Assembly (NCBI GenBank): GCA_027492035.1
Contig: JAOZFT010000004.1
Span: 113,929 to 177,928 of the forward strand
Length of the DNA: 64,000 bases
Origin: Thermoproteota archaeon
GTDB lineage: Archaea; Korarchaeota; JAOZGF01; JAOZFZ01
Direction of reading: 5' to 3'
Part shown: one piece after another, positions 25,357 through 57,252 of the stretch
Layout: every line of letters begins with the position of its first letter
How positions within the stretch are numbered: the first letter of the stretch is position 1
Notes under the pieces: generated by a model
The model's database searches: none
Told to the model about the DNA's origin: nothing
The model's input: only the letters and a program-made list of their open reading frames with translations
Translations under genes and position numbers: made by a program

Positions 25357-25481
25357 TGGGCCCGGCGGGATTTGAACCCGCGACCCTCGGGTTGCTCCTC
25401 CAAAGGGGAGTACTTCTTTGGGATTAAGAGCCCGGTGCTTTAGGCAAATGAGAGGTTTCTACCTTGCTGAGCTACGGGCCC
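25357..25481 (-). tRNA. tRNA-Lys(CUU) with two predicted introns (about 19 nt in the D-stem, about 32 nt in the anticodon loop)
   Basis: 7-bp acceptor GGGCCCG/CGGGCCC, T-arm GCGGG-UUCAAAU-CCCGC. Removing AACCUCUCAUUUGCCUAAA restores D-arm GCUC-AGCAAGGUA-GAGC; anticodon stem CCGGG with loop CUCUUAA after removing a hairpin-forming intron. Isotype from hand folding. Confidence 0.6.
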
Positions 25482-32439: not shown

Positions 32440-32526
32440 GGGCCCGTGGCCTAACATGGATAAGGCGTCGGCCTGCGGTTTTTAGAAGAAAGCCGGAGGA
32501 TGCGGGTTCAAATCCCGCCGGGCCCG
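32440..32526 (+). tRNA. tRNA-Arg(GCG) with 12-nt anticodon-loop intron
   Basis: Acceptor GGGCCCG/CGGGCCC, D-arm GCCU-AACAUGGAUA-AGGC, anticodon stem UCGGC/GCCGG with loop CUGCGG + intron UUUUUAGAAGAA, T-arm GCGGG-UUCAAAU-CCCGC. Confidence 0.75.
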
Positions 32527-36573: not shown

Positions 36574-36664
36574 TGGGCCGGGTGGGATTCGAACCCACGA
36601 CCTCCGCCTTTTTCCAAGGAACAAAACGTGAAGGCGACGTCATAACCATCTAGACCACCGGCCC
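36574..36664 (-). tRNA. tRNA-Val(CAC) with 17-nt anticodon-loop intron
   Basis: Acceptor GGGCCGG/CCGGCCC, anticodon stem UCGCC/GGCGG with loop UUCACG + intron UUUUGUUCCUUGGAAAA, T-arm GUGGG-UUCGAAU-CCCAC. Confidence 0.7.
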
Positions 36665-46563: not shown

Positions 46564-47751
46564 ATGGGAAGCAATTTTTTAACTTTAAAGGGGTGGCATT
46601 CACCCATTTTCAGGGATGAAACAAAACTTTACTTAGAGTATGTCCCTAAAGATCTTCCTCACCGAGAGGATACAATGAAAAAACTAACCTATTTATTTTG
46701 GCCAATTATTTCCTCTACTGGAAATTTTTCAGCTAGTGCCTGGATACATGGGGCTGTAGGAACAGGTAAAACCGCTGTTTCTAAGAAGTTTGGATTTCTC
46801 TTTGAGAAAATCAGTAAACAGAAATCATTTCTTTTAAAGTATATTCACATAAATTGTAAACAGAAAAGAACAGGCTCTAATGTGATTTTATCCATCTTGG
46901 ATAATTTAAACGTGACAGTGCCTTCTAGAGGACTTTCTTTTCAAGAATTAGCCTCAATACTTAAAAAAATTCTGTTCAAGAAGAAAAGATATATCCTTTT
47001 AGTTTTGGATGAGGCAGGTTATCTTTTGAAAAAGGAAGGATCCGACATTATTTACAGCCTTGCACGGCTAACAGAGGAAGAATTTAATCAGAGGCCTTTA
47101 TTCTCATTTATTTTTACCTCTAAACAAGGTAGAGATGCCTTTCTTCTAGATCAAAGTACAAGAAGTTCACTTGCACCAACTAAAATTCATTTACCAAAAT
47201 ACAATAAGAATGAGTTAAAAGATATACTAACTCTAAGAACTGAGGAAGCTTTAAGAAAGGGAGTGATAAAGGAGGAAGTAATAGATTTAATAGCAGAAAT
47301 TGCTTCTTCAAAAGGAGATGCTCGATATGCCATAGAGCTCTTGTGGAAAGCTGGTAAAGAAGCTGAAATGGAGGATTCAAAAGAAATACTTCCCTCTCAT
47401 GTCCACAAAGTTAATTTATCTATTATGGAACCTAGACAATATGAGGAGATAAATAACTTGCCGAGACATGAAAAGATGGTTTTGTTAGCGATCATAAAAG
47501 AAAATCTGAGTGGAGAGAGGAAATATGCAAGGATTAAAAGGATAGTGGAGAGGTACAGGGGCATTTGTAGAAAATATGGTGAAGAACCTAGGTCCTATAC
47601 TAGGGTTTGGCAATTCATAAAGGATTTACAGCACGCAGGGTTAATAGAAGTTAATAGGTTAAGTGAAGGTGAAAGAGGAACCTTAAAGATAAGGGTTACC
47701 CATGAAGAACTAAACAGTTTGGAGGGAGTAATAAAGGGGCAACTTTGCTAA
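46564..47751 (+). CDS. cdc6: Orc1/Cdc6 replication initiator
   Basis: Walker A GAVGTGKTAV, Walker B LLVLDEAGYL, C-terminal winged helix; 395 aa. Confidence 0.9.
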   Translation: MGSNFLTLKGWHSPIFRDETKLYLEYVPKDLPHREDTMKKLTYLFWPIISSTGNFSASAWIHGAVGTGKTAVSKKFGFLFEKISKQKSFLLKYIHINCKQKRTGSNVILSILDNLNVTVPSRGLSFQELASILKKILFKKKRYILLVLDEAGYLLKKEGSDIIYSLARLTEEEFNQRPLFSFIFTSKQGRDAFLLDQSTRSSLAPTKIHLPKYNKNELKDILTLRTEEALRKGVIKEEVIDLIAEIASSKGDARYAIELLWKAGKEAEMEDSKEILPSHVHKVNLSIMEPRQYEEINNLPRHEKMVLLAIIKENLSGERKYARIKRIVERYRGICRKYGEEPRSYTRVWQFIKDLQHAGLIEVNRLSEGERGTLKIRVTHEELNSLEGVIKGQLC

Positions 47752-48062
47752 AATCTACGGAGAGGTGTTTTCTAGTGCCTACTCTCCCACAAAAAATTAG
47801 TTTAGAGGAGGTATTCTCAACAAAGGCCCGAGTACGAATTATTAAATTGCTTATTTCAGAGGGAGAGATGAACATTACCCAGTTAACTAGAAAAACATGT
47901 TTAAATCACAAAATAGTTTCTTCAAACATTAAAGTTCTGTCAGAGAAAGGAATAATCTCTACAGAAAAAATAGGAAGAATTAGAACTTGCAAAATAAATA
48001 AATCAAACCCAAGAGCTAAATTATTAGCTAAATTTATTTCAGAATGGCAAAAAAGGCTATGA
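47745..48062 (+). CDS. Winged-helix (ArsR-like) transcription regulator
   Basis: EEVFSTKARVRIIKLLISEGEMNITQLTRKTCLNHKIVSSNIKVLSEKGII; overlaps the cdc6 stop. Confidence 0.5.
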   Translation: MLKSTERCFLVPTLPQKISLEEVFSTKARVRIIKLLISEGEMNITQLTRKTCLNHKIVSSNIKVLSEKGIISTEKIGRIRTCKINKSNPRAKLLAKFISEWQKRL

Positions 48063-49253
48063 AAGATGTATTAACTTTTTAACTTCATCTCTACCTAGTG
48101 AAAGGTAATTTATGACTTCTTTCCTATATTTACTCTGTTTCTGAACAAGCAATTTAATGAAAGGCAAATACTCAGAAATTACTTTTTTGCTTGAAACATG
48201 ACATTTGCTTGAAATCTTAGCCACTAATTCTTTTTCTTCACCCCTATCTTTCCTAGAAGAACTGATCTTCTTCAAGTAGGTGGGGAATTTAAAGGGGATG
48301 AATTTTTTCCTTTTTCCTACTGAAACAAAAGCCACCGTACCAAACATTAAATCAAAAAAATACTTTAGAAGAGACCAGTTTCCTTCCTTCTTTATTCTTC
48401 CAAGAAAAATGTCGGCTTTTGAGAGTTTCTCATAAGCCATGACTAAACCACGAGGTTCATTATAGATGAGAGGGAGGTTTTCAGCAACCCATTGAAAGAG
48501 AAGAGGGTAGTCTATTTCCAATTCTTCAAACACCCTTAGACCTTCTTCGAAACTTTTAGCCCTTAATAATTTATTAATTGCGGCAAAAACATCTATTTTA
48601 ATGTCACGTGCATGAATTTGCGTTTTATAGAGGAGAATACTTTGTAAATCGTTTAAAGCAGCCCTTACATCACCTTTTGCATTCTCCGCTATTGCATTAA
48701 GAATTTTATTATCTACATGACCCCCTTCTAACTGAACTACCCTTTTTAAGTAATGGAGGATAGTGGGTTTAGGTATTCTTCGAAATTTAATGGTTTCACT
48801 TTTCAAACGGATATCCCTAAGTCCCAAAGCGTAAGCGTTATTTGCAATCAACACTATTGGATATTTAGATTTCTCAATGACATGGATAAGGAAGGAAATG
48901 AATCTTGGAAAAAGGCTTCTTAACCCTTCTACTTCATCAATTAATATTATTTTTCCCTGGGAACCAAATAAACTAGTTGACGTCAAAGTGGAGCTCAGTG
49001 CTCTACAAAGCTCCTCAAAAGAGGAAATGGATACGGGGTCGATTTTTACTAGCTCAAAACCTAGTTCTTTGGCCTCTAACTCAACTAGAAGCGTTTTACC
49101 TGAACCTGAAGGCCCGAAAAGCAATGCAGGCTTACTAGTTTCTCCTTTAATAAATTTTTTAAGCCAAGTATTGAATTTTTCAGTAGCTTCTTTTTGATCC
49201 AAGTACTCAGATAAACTTTTGGGTTTGTATTTTTCAATGAAAAGAGTGGACAT
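48057..49253 (-). CDS. rfcL: Replication factor C, large subunit
   Basis: EKYKPKSLSEYLDQ then Walker A GPSGSGKT, Walker B LIDEVEG; 398 aa; adjacent to the small subunit. Confidence 0.9.
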   Translation of the reverse strand: MSTLFIEKYKPKSLSEYLDQKEATEKFNTWLKKFIKGETSKPALLFGPSGSGKTLLVELEAKELGFELVKIDPVSISSFEELCRALSSTLTSTSLFGSQGKIILIDEVEGLRSLFPRFISFLIHVIEKSKYPIVLIANNAYALGLRDIRLKSETIKFRRIPKPTILHYLKRVVQLEGGHVDNKILNAIAENAKGDVRAALNDLQSILLYKTQIHARDIKIDVFAAINKLLRAKSFEEGLRVFEELEIDYPLLFQWVAENLPLIYNEPRGLVMAYEKLSKADIFLGRIKKEGNWSLLKYFFDLMFGTVAFVSVGKRKKFIPFKFPTYLKKISSSRKDRGEEKELVAKISSKCHVSSKKVISEYLPFIKLLVQKQSKYRKEVINYLSLGRDEVKKLIHLS

Positions 49254-49259
49254 TCCTGA

Positions 49260-50222
49260 TCACACAGCACCGAAAAGGGAAAATTTAGCTAGAAGAGCAC
49301 TTAGCTGGACATCTGGATGTGCTCCTTCACTTAACCTAAAGTCAACTTCACCTACGTAGTCTAGTAAGGCCGTCTTTCTTTCTTCTTCTATATCCATGTT
49401 AAGAATTTCTCTATGAACTTGTTGCAAAATGTCAGAAGCAGAAACTCCATACCTTGTCATCAAATTGTAAAGGGTATCACGTGCCTCCTTGAATTTACCT
49501 TCTAAAGAGAGAGTCAACATTTTCCTTATTTCAGCAGGGTGAGCCCTGCCAGCTACCTTAAAGACTATTTCTTCAGTAATCTCTTCATTAAGAGCTGCAG
49601 AGGTTTGTAATAAATTTATTGCCCTCCTTAGGTCGCCTTCAGTGATGTAAACTATTGCATCAAGCCCCTTTCCAGAAATCGAAACCTTCTCCTTCTCAGC
49701 AATATAGAGGAGTCTTTCTTTAATCTTCTCTTCACTGATTCTTTGAAACCTGAAAATAGCACATCGTGACTGTATAGGTTCAATTATTTTAGAAGAGTAA
49801 TTACAAATTAATATGAATCTGCAATTGTGTGAAAAAATCTCCATTGTTCGCCTTAATGCCTGTTGAGCATCGCTGGTTAAATTATCAGCTTCATCTAGAC
49901 AAATTATTTTATAGGGGAACTCTCCTATTGGAGATGTTCTTGCAAAATCCTTAACTCTGGTTCTAATTGTCTCTATACCCCTTTCATCTGATGCATTCAA
50001 CTCAATAAAGTTGGATCTAAAACTCCCTGGACCGAACAATTCTTTAGCTAAACAAATCGCAGCAGTAGTTTTTCCGGTTCCTGGAGGACCTGCAAATAAC
50101 ATATGAGGAATTGATTTAGTAGCTACGAACCTTTTTAACCTTTCAACTGTCTCCTCTTGGTCAGTAATTTCTTTTAAAGTCTGAGGCCTATATTTCTCGG
50201 TCCAGATGCCATTAGCGCTCAT
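49260..50222 (-). CDS. rfcS: Replication factor C, small subunit
   Basis: WTEKYRP, GPPGTGKT, CLDEAD, SRC motifs; start taken at the Met preceding WTEKYRP (ORF track starts 27 nt upstream). Confidence 0.9.
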   Translation of the reverse strand: MSANGIWTEKYRPQTLKEITDQEETVERLKRFVATKSIPHMLFAGPPGTGKTTAAICLAKELFGPGSFRSNFIELNASDERGIETIRTRVKDFARTSPIGEFPYKIICLDEADNLTSDAQQALRRTMEIFSHNCRFILICNYSSKIIEPIQSRCAIFRFQRISEEKIKERLLYIAEKEKVSISGKGLDAIVYITEGDLRRAINLLQTSAALNEEITEEIVFKVAGRAHPAEIRKMLTLSLEGKFKEARDTLYNLMTRYGVSASDILQQVHREILNMDIEEERKTALLDYVGEVDFRLSEGAHPDVQLSALLAKFSLFGAV

Positions 50223-50331
50223 CAAAACAACCTCTAAACCCTGAACCAAAAATTTAAAATACCTTTCAAAAACAATGAACTACTATATTTATTTAATGCC
50301 CCTTATAAAAAATAAATGCTCAGCTATAACA

Positions 50332-50363
50332 AAAAAGTTTTCTTCTTAAGAGAAGAAAACTTT
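50332..50363. promoter_or_regulatory. Perfect inverted repeat (14-bp arms, 4-nt centre) in the rfcS / GINS-mcm divergent intergenic region
   Basis: AAAAGTTTTCTTCT-TAAG-AGAAGAAAACTTTT; followed by tandem AGAAAACAG AGAAAACAG at 50370-50387. Confidence 0.5.
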
Positions 50364-50407
50364 TCACGGCAGAAAACAGAGAAAACAGAAGAAAAAGCAA
50401 GAGGGAT

Positions 50408-50947
50408 ATGGAAGGAGAAGAGTGGGAGTTGGAAACAAAAACTAAGAAAAGAATAAAGAATCAATATAATCTCTTAAATGATGCCCGAGTAAAATCAAAA
50501 AGGGGCTTCTACCTACTGAATGAGGAAGGAAACAAGGAAGAAATTAAAAAAGATGAAATTATTAATGTACCGGTTTGGCAAGCTGAATTCTTGATAAGGG
50601 AAAACCTTGCAGAACCCATATATGAGAAAATAAATAATGAAACCTTAATGAGGATTCTTTCACTTGAGCAACTGAATACGTTTTCGTTGTATGAATTACC
50701 AAAAGATTTTTACCTTAACTGCCTACATACATTGGAACAATTAAAAAAGAGTAAGGATAAAGCAGCAAATGACTTCCTGAACCGACTAGAAAACTTAATA
50801 ACGCTTAGGTTACAGAAGATACTTAAGATGGCGGCTAAGAACTTAGAAAAAAGAAAAGAAAGGGAAAAGATGACAGCTGAGGAAGAACTGCTGTATGATT
50901 GGGTAAGGAAATTAGTAAATGATTGGGTTAAATCATTAATAGTTTAA
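50408..50947 (+). CDS. GINS subunit (Gins23-like), putative
   Basis: 179-aa helical protein directly upstream of and co-oriented with mcm, as in the Sulfolobus gins23-mcm pair; assignment by position and size only. Confidence 0.4.
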   Translation: MEGEEWELETKTKKRIKNQYNLLNDARVKSKRGFYLLNEEGNKEEIKKDEIINVPVWQAEFLIRENLAEPIYEKINNETLMRILSLEQLNTFSLYELPKDFYLNCLHTLEQLKKSKDKAANDFLNRLENLITLRLQKILKMAAKNLEKRKEREKMTAEEELLYDWVRKLVNDWVKSLIV

Positions 50948-50964
50948 GTAACTTAGGGAGAGGT

Positions 50965-53046
50965 ATGGAATTGCAACAGCTAAAAATATCACAAGAAACT
51001 TTAATCAAGACATTCCAAGATTTTCTGCTTAGCTTTCAAAGTGGAGGCAGAAAAGGATATTATGAACAACTTAAAGGTTTACCTGAAACAGGAGGAATTT
51101 CGATAAACGTTAATTACAGCGATGTTTTAATGTACAACCCAGAAATAGCGAATACTTTATTAGAGAAACCAGAAAAAATAATTAAGTCAGCATCTGAAGC
51201 ACTTAAAAGAACAATCTCCCAAATAGACCCTGAATATGCTAGATATAAGAAAAGATTTTACGTGAGGTTTCATAATTTACCCTATAAATCAGCTATAAGA
51301 GATCTACGTGCAAGTCAGATAGGGAAACTAGTGGAAATAGAGGGAGTGGTAACGCAGGCCTCAGCAATTCAAGCCCAGATGATAACAGCAACATATGAAT
51401 GTAGGAGTTGCTCCTCTATTTTTGAGGTTCCAATAGATGAAGATAACCCAAGTTTCCAAAAAAGTGTTTTAATTTGCCCAAATTGTGGAAGAAAAGGCCT
51501 ACACAAGCTACAGCTGGAAAACTGTACTTTCATGGACTGGCAAAGTATAAGGCTGCAGGAGGACCATGAAAACCTTCCTCCAGGTAGGTTACCTCGATCA
51601 ATATTATGTATTCTAAAGGAAGATTTAGCTGATAAAGTTAGGCCGGGGGACCATGTGCAACTTGTAGGTATACTAAAACCTATAAGGTTAATCCGCAAAG
51701 GGGAAGTAAGTAAGCTAAATTATTCCATTTATTTAGAGGGAAACTATGTAAAAGCATTAGGTGAAGAAGTAGAGACTGAGGAATTAAGTGAAGAAGACAT
51801 TGAAAAGATAAAATCTTTAGCAAAAGACCCAAATATAGCAGAAAGAATAGTAAACTCCATTTCTCCTTCGATATATGGCTTAAGCGAAGTTAAAAAAGCA
51901 ATAACTTTACTGCTTTTTGGTGGAAACCCAAAACATTTAGAAGGAGGAGGAAAAATAAGAGGGGATCTAAACATATTGTTAGTAGGTGATCCTGGAACTG
52001 GCAAAAGCCAAATATTAAAAAATGTAGCGAGAGTAGCACCAAGAGGATTATACACTACGGGTAAAGGATCTACAGCTGCAGGGTTAACGGCAGCTGTAGT
52101 TAAGGATTCATTGACAGGGAATTGGAGTCTGGAAGCAGGGGCTTTAGTTTTAGCTGATAAAGGAGTTGCATGTATAGATGAGTTTGATAAAATGAGCAAC
52201 AATGACAGAGTTGCAATTCATGAGGCTATGGAACAACAAACTATTTCGATAGCAAAGGCAGGCATAGTTGCGACTTTAAACGCTAGAACATCAATATTAG
52301 CGGCAGCCAATCCTGCTTGGGGCAGGTATGATGAAGATAGAAGCCCAGCTGAGAACATAAATTTGCCAGTTACGATACTGTCAAGATTTGATTTGATATT
52401 TCTAATTAAAGATGCGCCTGAGGCTCCAAAGGATAAAAATGTAGCCGAATTCATCCTTAAACTTCACGCTGGCAGAGGGGAAAATAATCAAGACTTGATA
52501 GAGCCTGTTCTCCTGAAAAAGTATATCCTTTACGCAAGAAAAAACATAAAGCCCCGTTTGACAAGGCAAGCTTTAGGAAGAATAAAACAGTTTTATTTAA
52601 AATTAAGGAAGGAAAGCGAAGAAAAACAAGTGATTGCGATAACGCCTAGGCAATTAGAGGCAGTAATTAGAATGAGTGAAGCAAGGGCGAAAATGGAACT
52701 TAGAAAACAAGTAAAAGAAACAGATGCTGAATTCGCAATCAATTTAATGGAAGAGTTCCTTAACCAAATAGGCTACGAAAGGAAAGAGGGTGCATACGAT
52801 ATAGATAGAGTAATCACAGGAGTGTCCTTCTCAAAAAGAAAAAGAATATTAGCCCTTGAATCTTTAATAAAGGAACTTTATGAAGACAATGGAAAAAGGC
52901 CTGTTGAAATATCAACCGTTATAGATACTTTTAAAGAGAAACATGGAATACAGGAGACATTAATAAGGGAAGATCTTGCCAGACTAAAGAAGGAGGGAAG
53001 AGTACTCTTTCCAAAAGAGGGATATGTGATACCTCTCGGATCCTAA
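50965..53046 (+). CDS. mcm: MCM replicative helicase
   Basis: Zn finger CRSC...CPNCG, Walker A GDPGTGKSQ, Walker B CIDEFDKM, arginine finger SRFDL; 693 aa, no intein. Confidence 0.95.
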   Translation: MELQQLKISQETLIKTFQDFLLSFQSGGRKGYYEQLKGLPETGGISINVNYSDVLMYNPEIANTLLEKPEKIIKSASEALKRTISQIDPEYARYKKRFYVRFHNLPYKSAIRDLRASQIGKLVEIEGVVTQASAIQAQMITATYECRSCSSIFEVPIDEDNPSFQKSVLICPNCGRKGLHKLQLENCTFMDWQSIRLQEDHENLPPGRLPRSILCILKEDLADKVRPGDHVQLVGILKPIRLIRKGEVSKLNYSIYLEGNYVKALGEEVETEELSEEDIEKIKSLAKDPNIAERIVNSISPSIYGLSEVKKAITLLLFGGNPKHLEGGGKIRGDLNILLVGDPGTGKSQILKNVARVAPRGLYTTGKGSTAAGLTAAVVKDSLTGNWSLEAGALVLADKGVACIDEFDKMSNNDRVAIHEAMEQQTISIAKAGIVATLNARTSILAAANPAWGRYDEDRSPAENINLPVTILSRFDLIFLIKDAPEAPKDKNVAEFILKLHAGRGENNQDLIEPVLLKKYILYARKNIKPRLTRQALGRIKQFYLKLRKESEEKQVIAITPRQLEAVIRMSEARAKMELRKQVKETDAEFAINLMEEFLNQIGYERKEGAYDIDRVITGVSFSKRKRILALESLIKELYEDNGKRPVEISTVIDTFKEKHGIQETLIREDLARLKKEGRVLFPKEGYVIPLGS

Positions 53047-53051
53047 GGTGT

Positions 53052-55625
53052 GTAAAGATAAAGGAACCTAATCTCCCGGAAAAAGTTGCACAAGCAGCTG
53101 CGAAATTAGGCATAAGGGCCCTTTTCCCGCCTCAAATAAGAGCTATAAAGAAGGGAATTCTAAAGGGTAAAAATTTCGTCATAGCTACACCTACAGCTAG
53201 TGGAAAAACATTTATAGCATTAGCTGCGATAATAACCAAGTTAAATAAACACAGTGATAAAGCTATTTATTTAGCACCTCTACGGAGTATAGCATCGGAA
53301 AAATACAGTGAATTCAAAGAATTATTTGATGAATTAGGGTTAAGGACGGCTATTTCCACCGGTGACTTCGATCTTTCACCCGACTGGTTGAAAGGATATA
53401 ACATAATTATTTCCACGAATGAAAAAATTGACTCAATCATTAGACACAACCCAAAGTGGTTACAAGACGTAAAGGTAGTTGTAGTGGATGAAGTGCACCT
53501 TATTGACAGTTTGAAACGTGGCCCAATAATCGAACTCTTAATCGCTAAACTAAGGAAGAAAATAGAAAACCCACAAATTTTGTGCTTAAGTGCAACAATT
53601 AAAAATGTGAAAGAACTAGCGGAATGGATTAATGGAACATATATAAGCAGCAACTGGAGACCCGTAGAACTCAGGGAGGGAGTATTTTATGATTACAAAA
53701 TCTATTGGAGCAATGGAACAAAAAACGTAAGGAAAATTAAGGGGGAGAAATACACAGACCTCTGTCTAGATACATTAAAGGAGAAAGGGCAGGTACTTGT
53801 TTTTTTAAACACCAGAAAAAACGCAGAAAACACCGCAGAAAAAGTAAAGAACGCTATTTCCAACACTCTTACTGAAGAAGAGAAAAAGGAACTTAAAAAA
53901 ACAGCTAGAAGGATTATTTCAGAAGGAGAACAAACTAAACTTTCGAAAAAACTAGCTAACCTAATAATGAGTGGAGTTGCATATCATCACGCAGGTTTAA
54001 GGCATATTCATCGTGCAATAGTAGAGGAAGCATTCAGAAGTAATTTTCTAAAAGTTATTTGTGCAACCCCCACCTTAGCTGCAGGAGTTAACCTCCCAGC
54101 TAGGAGGGTAATAATAGGGCAAATTCATAGATTTTCAAAGGGAAAAGGAAGTCAACCTATTTCTGTAATGGAGTACAAACAAATGTGTCTGCCGTATGAC
54201 ACGCTGATCTTAACAGAAGAAGGGGAGATAGAGATAGGGGAGATAGTTGAAAAGAGAACTCCAAAAAAAGTTGTCAGTTTAGATCTTGAAACCGGTAAAG
54301 TAACCTTGAGCAAGATATTATCCTTTTTTGAAAGGAAAACTAATTTTTTGGTTAAACTCTTTTTAACTACTGGCTTAAACCTAGAACTGACACCTAACCA
54401 TCCATTGCTGGCAGTTAAAAACGGAAGGTACGGATGGTTACTTGCAAAAAGAATACGGAGAGGCGATGTTGTATTTACGTTAGATAAAGGGCTAATGAGA
54501 AAGATAAAAGTGAAAAAGGTAAAAAGAATAAACTTAGATAGCCCGATCACTGTCTTCAATTTGAAAACAGAAAAGGAAACCTTTTTTGCGGAAAGAATTG
54601 TATTGCATAATTGTGGACGGGCAGGTAGACCAAAGTATGATGAAATAGGGGAGGCGGTTCTTATAGCAAACACTGAAGAAAGAAAGGAAAAGTACTTAAA
54701 AAAGTACGTGAACTCGAAACCAGAAAAAATAAAATCGAAACTGGTTGATTCACCTGCCCTAAGAGCGCAGATTCTGTCACTAATAACTTCTAATTTGGCA
54801 TTCACTCCTGAAGATATGAGGGACATATTTAAGTTGACTTTTTATTACAGCCAAACTAAAGAGAAAAAGAAAATAGAGAGAAAGATTAAAGAAACATTAG
54901 ATTTCTTGTTACTTAACGGATTTATAAAGAAAACAGGGGACTTGCTTCATGCTACAAAGTTAGGAAAAAGGGTTTCTTTACTTTATTTAGATCCTCTTAC
55001 AGCAATAATTTTACTTAAAGGAATGGAAAAACTAGAAAAGAAGAAAGTCACTCCTCTTTCATTACTAACACTGATCTGCCTCACTCCAGACATGGAAACA
55101 CTAAGTTACCGTAAGGCATTCTATCACGAAATGAACAACTTACTTAAAGAAAGAGAGGAAGAACTACCCCTAGAAGTTTATTATACTTCAACCTATTACT
55201 TGCTCGATCAAGACTGGCTGCAAGCAATATGGACTGCAAATATGCTTGAGAAATGGATAAATGAAGAAAATGAAGACACTTTAAACTTTAAGTACGGAGT
55301 TGGCCCAGGAGACATAAGAAGAGTAAATGAAAGTGCTGATTGGCTCCTCTACTCCATGCAGGAATTAGCCAAAACGTTTAAACATGAGAATTACATTCCT
55401 TTAATTGAAGAACTAAGGCAAAGAATAAAATATGGAGTGAAGAAGGAACTAATTGAATTAACTACCATAAAGGGTATTGGAAGGGTAAGAGCCAGAGTCC
55501 TCTACAATAAGGGATACAAACGTTTAGAAGATTTGAGTAAGGCGTCTATAAATGAACTTGCTAAACTTCCAGCTATAGGCGAAGCCTTAGCAAAAAGTAT
55601 TAAAGAACAACTAAATGAGGAATAG
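53052..55625 (+). CDS. hel308: Hel308 (Hjm) Ski2-like helicase, containing a mini-intein; true start codon unresolved
   Basis: Walker A ATPTASGKT, DEVH box VVVVDEVHL, motif VI QM-CGRAGRP interrupted by intein, C-terminal HhH (IKGIGRVRARVL). Homologous N-terminus lies upstream of the ORF-track start (53388) with no ATG/GTG/TTG in frame back to the stop at 52905; 53052 is a frame-consistent placeholder. Confidence 0.8.
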   Translation, partial: VKIKEPNLPEKVAQAAAKLGIRALFPPQIRAIKKGILKGKNFVIATPTASGKTFIALAAIITKLNKHSDKAIYLAPLRSIASEKYSEFKELFDELGLRTAISTGDFDLSPDWLKGYNIIISTNEKIDSIIRHNPKWLQDVKVVVVDEVHLIDSLKRGPIIELLIAKLRKKIENPQILCLSATIKNVKELAEWINGTYISSNWRPVELREGVFYDYKIYWSNGTKNVRKIKGEKYTDLCLDTLKEKGQVLVFLNTRKNAENTAEKVKNAISNTLTEEEKKELKKTARRIISEGEQTKLSKKLANLIMSGVAYHHAGLRHIHRAIVEEAFRSNFLKVICATPTLAAGVNLPARRVIIGQIHRFSKGKGSQPISVMEYKQMCLPYDTLILTEEGEIEIGEIVEKRTPKKVVSLDLETGKVTLSKILSFFERKTNFLVKLFLTTGLNLELTPNHPLLAVKNGRYGWLLAKRIRRGDVVFTLDKGLMRKIKVKKVKRINLDSPITVFNLKTEKETFFAERIVLHNCGRAGRPKYDEIGEAVLIANTEERKEKYLKKYVNSKPEKIKSKLVDSPALRAQILSLITSNLAFTPEDMRDIFKLTFYYSQTKEKKKIERKIKETLDFLLLNGFIKKTGDLLHATKLGKRVSLLYLDPLTAIILLKGMEKLEKKKVTPLSLLTLICLTPDMETLSYRKAFYHEMNNLLKEREEELPLEVYYTSTYYLLDQDWLQAIWTANMLEKWINEENEDTLNFKYGVGPGDIRRVNESADWLLYSMQELAKTFKHENYIPLIEELRQRIKYGVKKELIELTTIKGIGRVRARVLYNKGYKRLEDLSKASINELAKLPAIGEALAKSIKEQLNEE
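54186..54611 (+). other. Mini-intein (142 aa, no homing-endonuclease domain) in Hel308 motif VI
   Basis: Begins with Cys (CLPYDTLILTEEG, block A), contains TPNHPLL (block B TxxH), ends FFAERIVLHN followed by Cys +1; flanking exteins YKQM / CGRAGRP reconstitute motif VI. Confidence 0.8.
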
Positions 55626-55655
55626 TGGAAGGTAAGGGTGAGTTGGTGGTAGCAT

Positions 55656-57059
55656 ATGTCTGTTTGCCCAATTGACACCGGAAGATATGGAAGAGAACCC
55701 TTAAAGAAAATTTTTACTGAAGAGGGACGTATAGAAAGGCTGCTAAAAGTTGAAGCCACCATAGCCAAAACACATGCTGAAATAGGAATCATACCTAAGG
55801 AAGCAGCACAAGAGATAGAGAAGAAGGCTTCCTTAAAATATGTAAAAATAGAGAGGATAAAGGAGATAGAAAAAGAAATACACCATGAAACAATGGCGAT
55901 GGTTCTTGCGTTAGCGGAACAATGTGGGAAATATGGGGGATACGTGCATTTAGGTTTAACAAGTAGTGATGCTTTAGATACTGCACTAGCAATCCAAATA
56001 AAGGATGCATTAAAAATAATTGAAGGCAAGCTAGAGAAATTGATTCTTAAACTAGTGGAGAAAGCTTTAAAGTATAAAAGTTTACCTATGATCGGAAGAA
56101 CCCATGGACAGCATGCAATACCTATAACTCTCGGTTTTAAATTTGCCCTGTTCGCTTCAGAGTTTCATAGACATTATGAAAGATTACAAGAAATAAAATC
56201 TCGAATTTTAGTTGGGAAAATCTCCGGTGCAACAGGTACGTTTGCAGCTTTGGGTAAAAAGGGCATCTTGATACAAAAGAGAACGTTAGAGAAATTGGGG
56301 CTGGGTGAACCCTTAATTACGACACAAATAATACAGAGAGATAGACATGCTGAACTAATTTTTCTGCTTGCATTAATAGGTACTTCTTTAGATAAGTTAG
56401 CAACAGAGATAAGGAACTTACAAAGGACAGAGATAAGTGAAGTCTCTGAGCCATTCAATAAACAGCAGATAGGTTCCAGCACAATGCCTCAGAAAAGAAA
56501 CCCTACGAAATCAGAGAGAATAACAAGTTTATCCCGACTTTTAAGATCAATGGTTTACCCAAGTCTAGAAAATATTGTCACGTGGCATGAAAGAGACCTA
56601 ACCAACTCAGCAAATGAAAGATTTACAGTGCCTGAGTCATTTATTTTGCTAGACGAGATGTTGACTGAGATGATTGAAATAATAGAGAAAATCAAGGTTA
56701 ACAAAGAAAAAATAAAGGAAAATCTTCACTTAACAAAAGGGTTAGTGATGTCGGAAAGAATAATGATGGCATTAACCAAAAAGGGGATGGGTAGACAGGA
56801 GGCCCACCAAACGTTGCGAAAAATAGCACTCAAATCGGTAAATGAAAACAAAGAATTCAGAATTACTCTTCTCCAAGACAAAGAAATAAAGAAGAAATTA
56901 ACCAGGAAAGAAATAGATGAACTTTTGAACCCTGAAACTTACACAGGTTTAGCAGAGAAAGTAATTGAAAGGACAATTCAGGCAATAAACAACTCGTTAA
57001 ACAAAAAAAGAGGGGAGGGGTTGGGAGAAGCTGATGCTATTCTTTTTAAACGCCTCTAA
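55656..57059 (+). CDS. purB: Adenylosuccinate lyase
   Basis: Fumarate-lyase family; GLTSSDALDTA and the SSTMPQKRNP signature; 467 aa. Confidence 0.9.
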   Translation: MSVCPIDTGRYGREPLKKIFTEEGRIERLLKVEATIAKTHAEIGIIPKEAAQEIEKKASLKYVKIERIKEIEKEIHHETMAMVLALAEQCGKYGGYVHLGLTSSDALDTALAIQIKDALKIIEGKLEKLILKLVEKALKYKSLPMIGRTHGQHAIPITLGFKFALFASEFHRHYERLQEIKSRILVGKISGATGTFAALGKKGILIQKRTLEKLGLGEPLITTQIIQRDRHAELIFLLALIGTSLDKLATEIRNLQRTEISEVSEPFNKQQIGSSTMPQKRNPTKSERITSLSRLLRSMVYPSLENIVTWHERDLTNSANERFTVPESFILLDEMLTEMIEIIEKIKVNKEKIKENLHLTKGLVMSERIMMALTKKGMGRQEAHQTLRKIALKSVNENKEFRITLLQDKEIKKKLTRKEIDELLNPETYTGLAEKVIERTIQAINNSLNKKRGEGLGEADAILFKRL

Positions 57060-57252
57060 CAGCCAATTTAACGTCTTCTTCGAGAACTGTTTTCCTACCT
57101 GCATGTTTAGCGAAGTCTGCAGCTCTCCGGCTGAGTTTTTCGGCGTAATTTTCAACCACGTCCCTTAACACTAACCTTGCATTCTCACTTACTCTGACCG
57201 CACCGGCTTTCCTCATAATTTTATCCAAAGGAGCTAATGGTAATTCAGCCAT
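57046..57252 (-). CDS. Archaeal histone (HMf-type histone fold)
   Basis: MAELPLAPLDKIMRKAGAVRVSENARLVLRDVVENYAEKLSRRAADFAKHAGRKTVLEEDVKLAVRGV matches the archaeal histone pattern. Confidence 0.85.
   Translation of the reverse strand: MAELPLAPLDKIMRKAGAVRVSENARLVLRDVVENYAEKLSRRAADFAKHAGRKTVLEEDVKLAVRGV

Follow-up and report, generated by a model that had tools for sequence, protein, structure and literature searches.

Archaeal inteins have been recorded in Ski2-like helicases (COG1204, the COG of Hel308): the survey by Novikova et al. (2016, PMC4760082) counts 11 of them in Euryarchaeota and ranks these proteins within the top 15 intein hosts of archaea. The element described here is a putative mini-intein of 142 amino acids that interrupts motif VI of a Hel308/Hjm helicase gene in an uncultured Thermoproteota archaeon. 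It lies at 54186-54611 of a DNA stretch of 64,000 nucleotides (assembly GCA_027492035.1, contig JAOZFT010000004.1, positions 113,929 to 177,928 of the forward strand); the whole stretch is called the window below, and feature positions are counted in it. The host family is the same as that of the Ski2-like inteins in the survey, a likeness at the level of the host protein.

We consider, with a probability of about 0.88, that the insert is a class 1 mini-intein of canonical type, located in RecA2 of Hel308/Hjm, which is spliced out to restore motif VI. The chief value of the finding is one of annotation, i.e. the real product of the gene would be a Hel308 of 713 amino acids made via predicted protein splicing. 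It raises no new biological question.

The insertion in motif VI of Hel308

The host frame extends without a stop over 52935-55622, between an upstream stop at 52932 and the stop codon at 55623-55625. Within it the insert (+ strand) consists of 142 stop-free codons that run from CLPYDTLILTEEG to FFAERIVLHN (its sequence starts with CLPYDTLILTEEGEIEIGEIVEKR and ends with TEKETFFAERIVLHN), and the reverse strand of the same interval, when translated, has stops throughout. The N-extein (53058-54185, +; 376 amino acids, Pfam DEAD at 123 bits) ends in ...SVMEYKQM and holds RecA1 (motifs Q, I PTASGKT and II DEVH) as well as most of RecA2. The first residue of the C-extein (54612-55625, +; 337 amino acids and the stop codon) is the +1 Cys (TGT, 54612-54614, +), followed by GRAGRP; the flank after the insert reads CGRAGRPKYDEIGEA. 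Besides completing motif VI (CGRAGRP), the C-extein supplies the winged helix, ratchet domain 4 and, at the C-terminus, a helix-hairpin-helix (HhH) domain. A preliminary description of this DNA had motif VI split into ...YKQM and CGRAGRP at 54186-54611, and the translation reproduces both the coordinates and the quoted residues exactly.

Judged from its sequence, the host protein is a Hel308/Hjm helicase, as the preliminary description had proposed. The best PDB matches are Hjm of P. furiosus (2zj2, E 4.9e-154) and the Hel308 proteins of A. fulgidus (2p6r, 2.1e-140) and S. solfataricus (2va8, 1.4e-139). Pfam assigns DEAD, Helicase_C, HTH_61, Helicase_dom4_arc (117 bits) and HHH_5, so that the Hel308 domain plan is complete, i.e. 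the RecA1 and RecA2 domains of superfamily 2 (SF2), winged helix, ratchet domain 4 and C-terminal HhH. The unspliced precursor misses the NCBIfam equivalog cut-offs (NF002654, 794 vs 887; NF040935 helicase_Hel308, 582 vs 1200), being both split by the intein and divergent.

The alignments define the insertion point. In a phmmer search against the PDB, query residues 3-378 (counted from 53052) correspond to Hjm 3-365 and query residues 520-850 to Hjm 365-695. In A. fulgidus Hel308, ...YKQM extends to residue 366 and AGRAGRP starts from 367, abutting it. Since the two alignment blocks abut in both proteins, the 142 residues are a clean insertion in motif VI. The nearest intein-free homologues, which are 54-57% identical, read EYKQMSGRAGRP (P0002) and EYKQMVGRAGRP (P0003), i.e. 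EYKQM[S/V]GRAGRP without any insert; the nearest named exteins are those of Thermofilum (46%) and other Thermoproteota. The intein follows Met376 and precedes xGRAGRP in motif VI (QMxGRAGR). Such an alignment to intein-free Hel308/Hjm had been suggested in the preliminary description, and it leaves the flanks contiguous and the splicing residues within the insert.

When the intein is removed, the flanks align gap-free to the solved Hel308/Hjm structures, and the predicted spliced product has 713 amino acids (376 + 337) vs 702-720 in the solved chains. The expectation of a normal Hel308 size after subtraction of the insert therefore stands. The open reading frame (ORF) length of about 858 amino acids that accompanied it does not, the precursor having 855 residues from ATA 53058 or 857 from GTA 53052.

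The match of the insert to curated intein models, a sequence-profile result, is far beyond chance: PF14890 (Intein_splicing) scores 49.4 bits against a cut-off of 35.8 (E 5.6e-13) and TIGR01445 (intein_Nterm) 48.8 bits against 24.5 (E 1e-12). Block A (CLPYDTLILTEEG, 54186-54224, +) carries the presumed nucleophile Cys1 at 54186-54188. Block B (GLNLELTPNHPLL, 54372-54410, +) has the TxxH motif as T69-P-N-H72, with T69 at 54390-54392 and H72 at 54399-54401. Blocks F and G (ITVFNLKTEKETFFA-ERIVLHN, 54546-54611, +) contain N125, the penultimate H141 and the terminal N142 (54609-54611). In other words, the splicing residues Cys1, T69-x-x-H72 and H141-N142, then Cys+1, are all found in the translated sequence, which bears out the initial Cys, block B, terminal HN and Cys+1 of the preliminary description. 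Cys1 is the sole cysteine of the intein, and Cys+1 adjoins the intein. A Pfam scan of the 142 amino acids gave HINT-type families only and no endonuclease family, and the interval from block B to block F is only about 45 residues long. The insert thus appears to be a class 1 mini-intein without a homing endonuclease, for which it had already been said to offer no room. Two further Pfam matches were sub-threshold or borderline, namely Hint PF01079 (28.6 vs 29.7) and PT-HINT PF07591 (28.7 vs 27.7).

The mini-intein identity put forward in the preliminary description is also in keeping with the structure prediction. The AlphaFold2 model, for which nine mini-inteins of this site were aligned, reaches a mean predicted local distance difference test (pLDDT) value of 85.1; the block means within the intein are 82-97, mostly >=90, and low values are confined to the 15-residue extein stubs. 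The top Foldseek matches in the PDB are all solved inteins or HINT domains, with template-modelling (TM) scores of 0.77-0.87 and E values down to 8.5e-12. They include PhoCDC21-1 (6rpq, E 8.5e-12), the Mtu RecA mini-intein (TM 0.86, root-mean-square deviation 2.2-2.4 A), the PolII intein 7oec and NpuDnaB; a bacterial intein-like domain and hedgehog Hint domains were also among the matches. The insert is accordingly predicted to have the HINT fold of the solved mini-inteins.

In SF2 helicases the arginines of motif VI contact and sense the gamma-phosphate of ATP in the cleft between RecA1 and RecA2. A precursor of about 855 amino acids would be made first, with motif VI not intact, and because the motif is interrupted this unspliced form should lack coupled ATPase/helicase activity. 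The chemistry that would follow is taken over from the intein family to which anatomy, profile membership and predicted fold assign the insert. An N-S acyl shift would occur at Cys1, with T69 and H72 of block B assisting; trans-thioesterification would then hand the N-extein to the thiol of Cys+1; cyclisation of Asn142, helped by His141, would free the intein; and an S-N shift would finally create the peptide bond in ...EYKQM-CGRAGRPKY... and hence the helicase of 713 amino acids.

Allelic inteins and other helicase sites

When the intein was the sole query, a word-indexed protein search gave no match. A HMMER scan with the same query gave 769 matches at E <=1e-3, with E 1e-30 reached by the window's own protein only. 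In the search with full-length Hel308 the best 120 homologues were listed, and all of these that are longer than about 860 amino acids carry HN/CGRAGRP (the slash marks the junction). Five mini-inteins of 143-151 amino acids (P0004, P0006, P0008, P0011 and P0018) and about 20 inteins of 452-476 amino acids with the LAGLIDADG family PF14528 are found among the matches listed. HN/CGRAGR occurs at the same site in 36 of the proteins retrieved, six of which are the window's own protein or belong to the P0004 cluster. All intein-bearing Hel308 proteins recovered have the +1 Cys after HN (HN/CGRAGRP), and a Cys at this position is also present in at least 19 listed intein-free Hel308 proteins (Q[ML]CGRAGR).

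The distribution of the site was investigated by scanning one archaeal genome per GTDB species with two junction peptides, which returned 62 loci with a motif VI intein. Among the Thermoproteota these are in Thermofilum, Thermoprotei, Bathyarchaeia, Nitrososphaeria and one Kor3 metagenome-assembled genome (MAG); among DPANN they are in Woese-, Pace-, Micr-, Aenigm-, Nanohalo- and Iainarchaeota. The remaining loci are in Asgard (Hod- and Heimdallarchaeota) and in Methanosarcinales and Methanobacteriota MAGs. Motif VI of Hel308 is therefore a widely used intein site in Thermoproteota, DPANN, Asgard and methanogen-related MAGs. Both junctions were verified end to end at 42 loci (L033 and L039 were left out, as their N-junction had been mis-assigned by the extraction pattern); seven of these inteins have 129-153 and 35 have 451-476 amino acids, and the large forms examined carry LAGLIDADG PF14528. 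In other words, the allelic inteins are mostly large, whereas the copy in the window is a mini-intein. So many public archaeal genomes already have an intein at this site that the finding is less novel than the preliminary description implied. None of the allelic inteins is marked as an intein in the source names examined, and no paper describing a motif VI intein site of Hel308 was found in our literature searches.

The conservation of the catalytic positions was compared in 65 distinct allelic inteins that share 30-45% identity overall. It is conspicuous that T69, H72, W84 and N125, which the extraction pattern did not impose, are invariant in 65/65; Cys1, H141 and N142 were required by the pattern and are likewise present in 65/65, and Pro3 is found in 62/65. 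At the level of the sequences compared, the invariance of T69, H72, W84 and N125 in inteins so divergent is a signature of selection for splicing. The window intein shares 36-46% identity with its allelic relatives, 40-46% with the closest ones. By these comparisons it is a member, divergent (<= about 46% identity) and not yet annotated, of the large family of inteins that occupies this well-populated site.

In a neighbour-joining tree, which is rough and indicative only, the mini-inteins are scattered among endonuclease-bearing inteins; for instance, P0018 (143 amino acids) and P0040 (243 amino acids) lie within inteins of 452-463 amino acids. This scatter indicates repeated loss of the endonuclease. 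The window intein groups loosely (about 40% identity) with the mini-inteins L003 and L004 of Thermoprotei/Thermoproteales MAGs. Its G+C content is 0.357, against 0.369 and 0.356 in the exteins, which is consistent with long residence and not with recent invasion; a recent horizontal acquisition was rejected because the value equals that of the exteins. The intein is endonuclease-free and has the base composition of the host gene; most likely it is old and immobile and has descended vertically from LAGLIDADG inteins such as those at the same site in other archaea. Selection for a working helicase would maintain its splicing competence.

A contig assigned to bacteria (L060, JBLGBK010000002.1, titled 'Colwellia polaris' MAG) has an archaeal Hel308 with a motif VI intein of 456 amino acids. 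In the same tree, the sister of this intein comes from a Nanohaloarchaea MAG (L037), and the contig is probably mis-binned.

Hel308 contains other intein sites as well. One lies in motif V (ATPTL/C...HN/SAGVNLPA in P0028 and P0040) and one near motif II (P0113), so that Hel308 has at least three distinct sites, and some Hel308 proteins hold two inteins. A further Hel308 intein, PI-MjaHel of M. jannaschii MJ1124, is listed in InBase and UniProt. Methanocaldococcus was absent from the loci returned by the junction-pattern scan of species genomes, and PI-MjaHel may therefore sit at another site.

One of the best matches of the HMMER scan with the intein alone is a mini-intein in a different helicase. 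P0125 is an Lhr-type helicase (WH_Lhr domain) whose residues 297-435 form a 139-amino acid mini-intein, 38% identical to that of the window, and the junctions TLQR/CLPYDSKILLSDG...THN/CGRSGH are at the equivalent position of motif VI. Related inteins hence share a structural position in two SF2 helicase families, which suggests that they moved between these families at the same structural site. Both sites are in keeping with what is known of inteins, which favour the ATPase motifs of proteins that act in replication and repair.

Start codon and competing explanations

The start of the Hel308 gene is unusual. No in-frame ATG, GTG or TTG occurs between the stop at 52932 and 53388, yet the conserved N-terminal part of the helicase, with Walker A (PTASGKT), is encoded in the 110 codons before 53388. 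The gene probably starts at ATA 53058: the candidate translation start (53045-53060, +) consists of a Shine-Dalgarno (SD)-like AAGGTG (53045-53050), a 7-nt spacer and ATA (53058-53060), with GTA 53052 as the alternative, and the host N-terminus aligns from Hjm residue 3. The canonical start of about 20 relatives is two codons upstream of the aligned position. The intein-free relative L065 has ATT where these relatives have the canonical start, with GGGGAGGG before it (L065:3082-3220). L004 has ATA at the same position, with GGTGA before it and an in-frame TGA just three codons upstream (L004:1883-1900). The exteins of the three genes are 41-57% identical. All three Hel308 genes appear to use near-cognate ATA/ATT starts, and the pattern suggests that initiation of Hel308 at a near-cognate codon, immediately after MCM, is conserved.

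Because there is no canonical start codon, the public calls are too short. Those for the window gene begin at 53484 (713 amino acids) or at TTG 53388 (745 amino acids), lose motifs Q, I and Ia and leave the intein unmarked; that for the relative L065/P0002 is likewise shortened, to 687 amino acids. A frameshift fusion of MCM and Hel308 was also considered and set aside, as no good slippery heptamer was seen by eye and the SD with ATA/ATT recurs in three genomes.

Several observations weigh against a functional, splicing intein. The Asp and His that are common in block F of class 1 inteins are absent; block F of the window reads VFNLKTEKETFF (ITVFN125LKTEKETFFA), with Asn replacing Asp. These two residues are common among inteins but not universally required, and since Asn125 is invariant in all allelic relatives, the altered block F is a family trait and not decay. 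The structural model depends on an alignment of nine sequences. The closest relatives are just 40-46% identical, so that they give no close-relative sign of purifying selection on the window copy. Finally, a missing canonical start could in principle mean that the gene is decaying.

The alternative that survives best, which is compatible with the interpretation as a splicing mini-intein and which we regard as unlikely, is that the intein has been co-opted as a conditional switch, Hel308 being held inactive until a cue such as reduction of a Cys1-Cys+1 disulfide, temperature, single-stranded DNA (ssDNA) or DNA damage triggers splicing. Inteins of P. horikoshii RadA and mycobacterial DnaB reportedly behave in this way. 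As the intein interrupts a repair helicase within one of its catalytic motifs, the precursor must be inactive; moreover, the endonuclease has been lost with every splicing residue kept, although that is equally expected of a pure parasite in a useful gene. The sole intein cysteine Cys1 and the adjacent Cys+1 would also suit a redox cue. Two publications (PMC4513877, PMC6195587) document inteins of ATPase domains that splice conditionally, and the idea is raised for helicase inteins in a paper on Lhr (PMC8301817), all of which counts in favour of a switch. However, a sequence cannot tell a regulated from a constitutive intein, and the closest extein relatives P0002 and P0003 are intein-free, so that the intein is dispensable for the lineage.

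An extension of this idea, which we think quite doubtful, is a two-level throttle on Hel308, in which the near-cognate start downstream of MCM would be combined with conditional splicing of motif VI (redox via Cys1/Cys+1, or ssDNA). If this were true, the intein would gate a repair helicase post-translationally instead of being a passive parasite.

It is very improbable that the insert is a decayed, splicing-dead remnant in a Hel308 pseudogene. The first 110 codons without ATG, GTG or TTG, the loss of Walker A from the public calls of 713/745 amino acids and the non-canonical block F would be expected of a pseudogene. Nevertheless, the frame of 855 codons is intact with all helicase motifs and the catalytic residues of the intein, the SD with ATA/ATT at the aligned N-terminus of three genomes whose exteins have diverged so far is a conserved feature, and the block F Asn is the norm of the family (65/65). 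The least credible explanation is that the insertion is specific to the lineage and does not splice, or that it is a HINT domain, or one of the bacterial intein-like (BIL) type, that cleaves without ligating the exteins: the weak Hint and PT-HINT matches and the bacterial intein-like and hedgehog Hint domains among the fold matches point that way, but the best profile matches are intein-specific and above threshold, the HN/Cys+1 pair for ligation is present, the interrupted motif is essential and must be rejoined, and 65 allelic copies occupy the same junction, half of them with homing endonucleases.

Genomic setting and comparison with known inteins

The window matches contig JAOZGG010000006.1 of GCA_027491775.1, and the same locus recurs in GCA_027491625.1 as well as in a third assembly, where its contig has 666 kb. 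For 52900-53500, upstream of the intein, a second assembly has identical DNA, and gene calls in three assemblies give one and the same protein. Hel308 belongs to a cluster of replication genes (46564-57252; neighbour coordinates were obtained as L001 + 44964) that comprises, by Pfam, Cdc6 (46564-47751), the large and small RFC subunits (48057-50222, -), MCM (50965-53046) and, after Hel308, adenylosuccinate lyase (55656-57059), followed by a histone gene. An ORF of 179 amino acids without a Pfam label (50408-50947) lies where the intein-free relative L065 has a GINS23-like gene; the order MCM-Hel308-lyase is kept in L065.

No further intein was found in the window when all six-frame ORFs were searched with the family hidden Markov model. 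MCM and the RFC subunits of the window are intein-free, though they are common intein hosts. An antisense ORF of 224 amino acids (54152-54826, -), which overlaps the intein and is rich in Phe, Ser and Leu, was dismissed as a mirror artefact of the AT-rich, Lys/Glu-rich sense strand, as it shows no evidence of being a gene.

Three Rfam tRNA matches, at 25357-25481 (-), 32440-32526 (+) and 36574-36664 (-), are 125, 87 and 91 nt long, i.e. longer than a standard tRNA. ARAGORN reports one tRNA only (tRNA-Arg CCT), and the three matches are probably intron-containing archaeal tRNAs. No rRNA was found in the window.

Among inteins of solved structure, the nearest to the window's are the Pho and Pab PolII mini-inteins and the Pho RadA intein (phmmer against the PDB, E 5.8e-11 to 2e-9). 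The Pyrococcus PolII (DP2) mini-inteins (5bkh, 7oec, 2lcj) and Pho RadA (4e2u) are, like the window's, class 1 archaeal HINT minis free of an endonuclease. They differ in host protein and insertion site and in length, with 168-186 amino acids vs 142 in the window. Moreover, the aligned PolII chain ends in ...VTHQ/C, i.e. it has Gln where the window intein has Asn. As a 142-residue intein from what is presumably a moderately AT-rich archaeon, the window's copy may be a candidate for the protein-engineering toolkit.

Closer in site are the inteins of Lhr. Inteins that split RecA2 are described for archaeal Lhr helicases, including aLhr2 of P. horikoshii (PMC8301817), a likeness at the level of the domain. 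The N-terminal block of the P0125 intein (CLPYD..G...IGEIVEK) is near-identical to the window's, and the host family differs.

The closest counterparts are the allelic inteins of Hel308 itself. Examples are found in Thermofilum sp. ex4484_15 (OYT62923.1, P0004 cluster), Thermoprotei B14_G17 (L003) and in Bathyarchaeia, Nitrososphaerales, DPANN and Asgard MAGs. Their insertion point, ...EYKQ[MF]/C[LFMVI]P...HN/CGRAGRP, is identical to that in the window, and blocks A, B, F and G are common to all of them.

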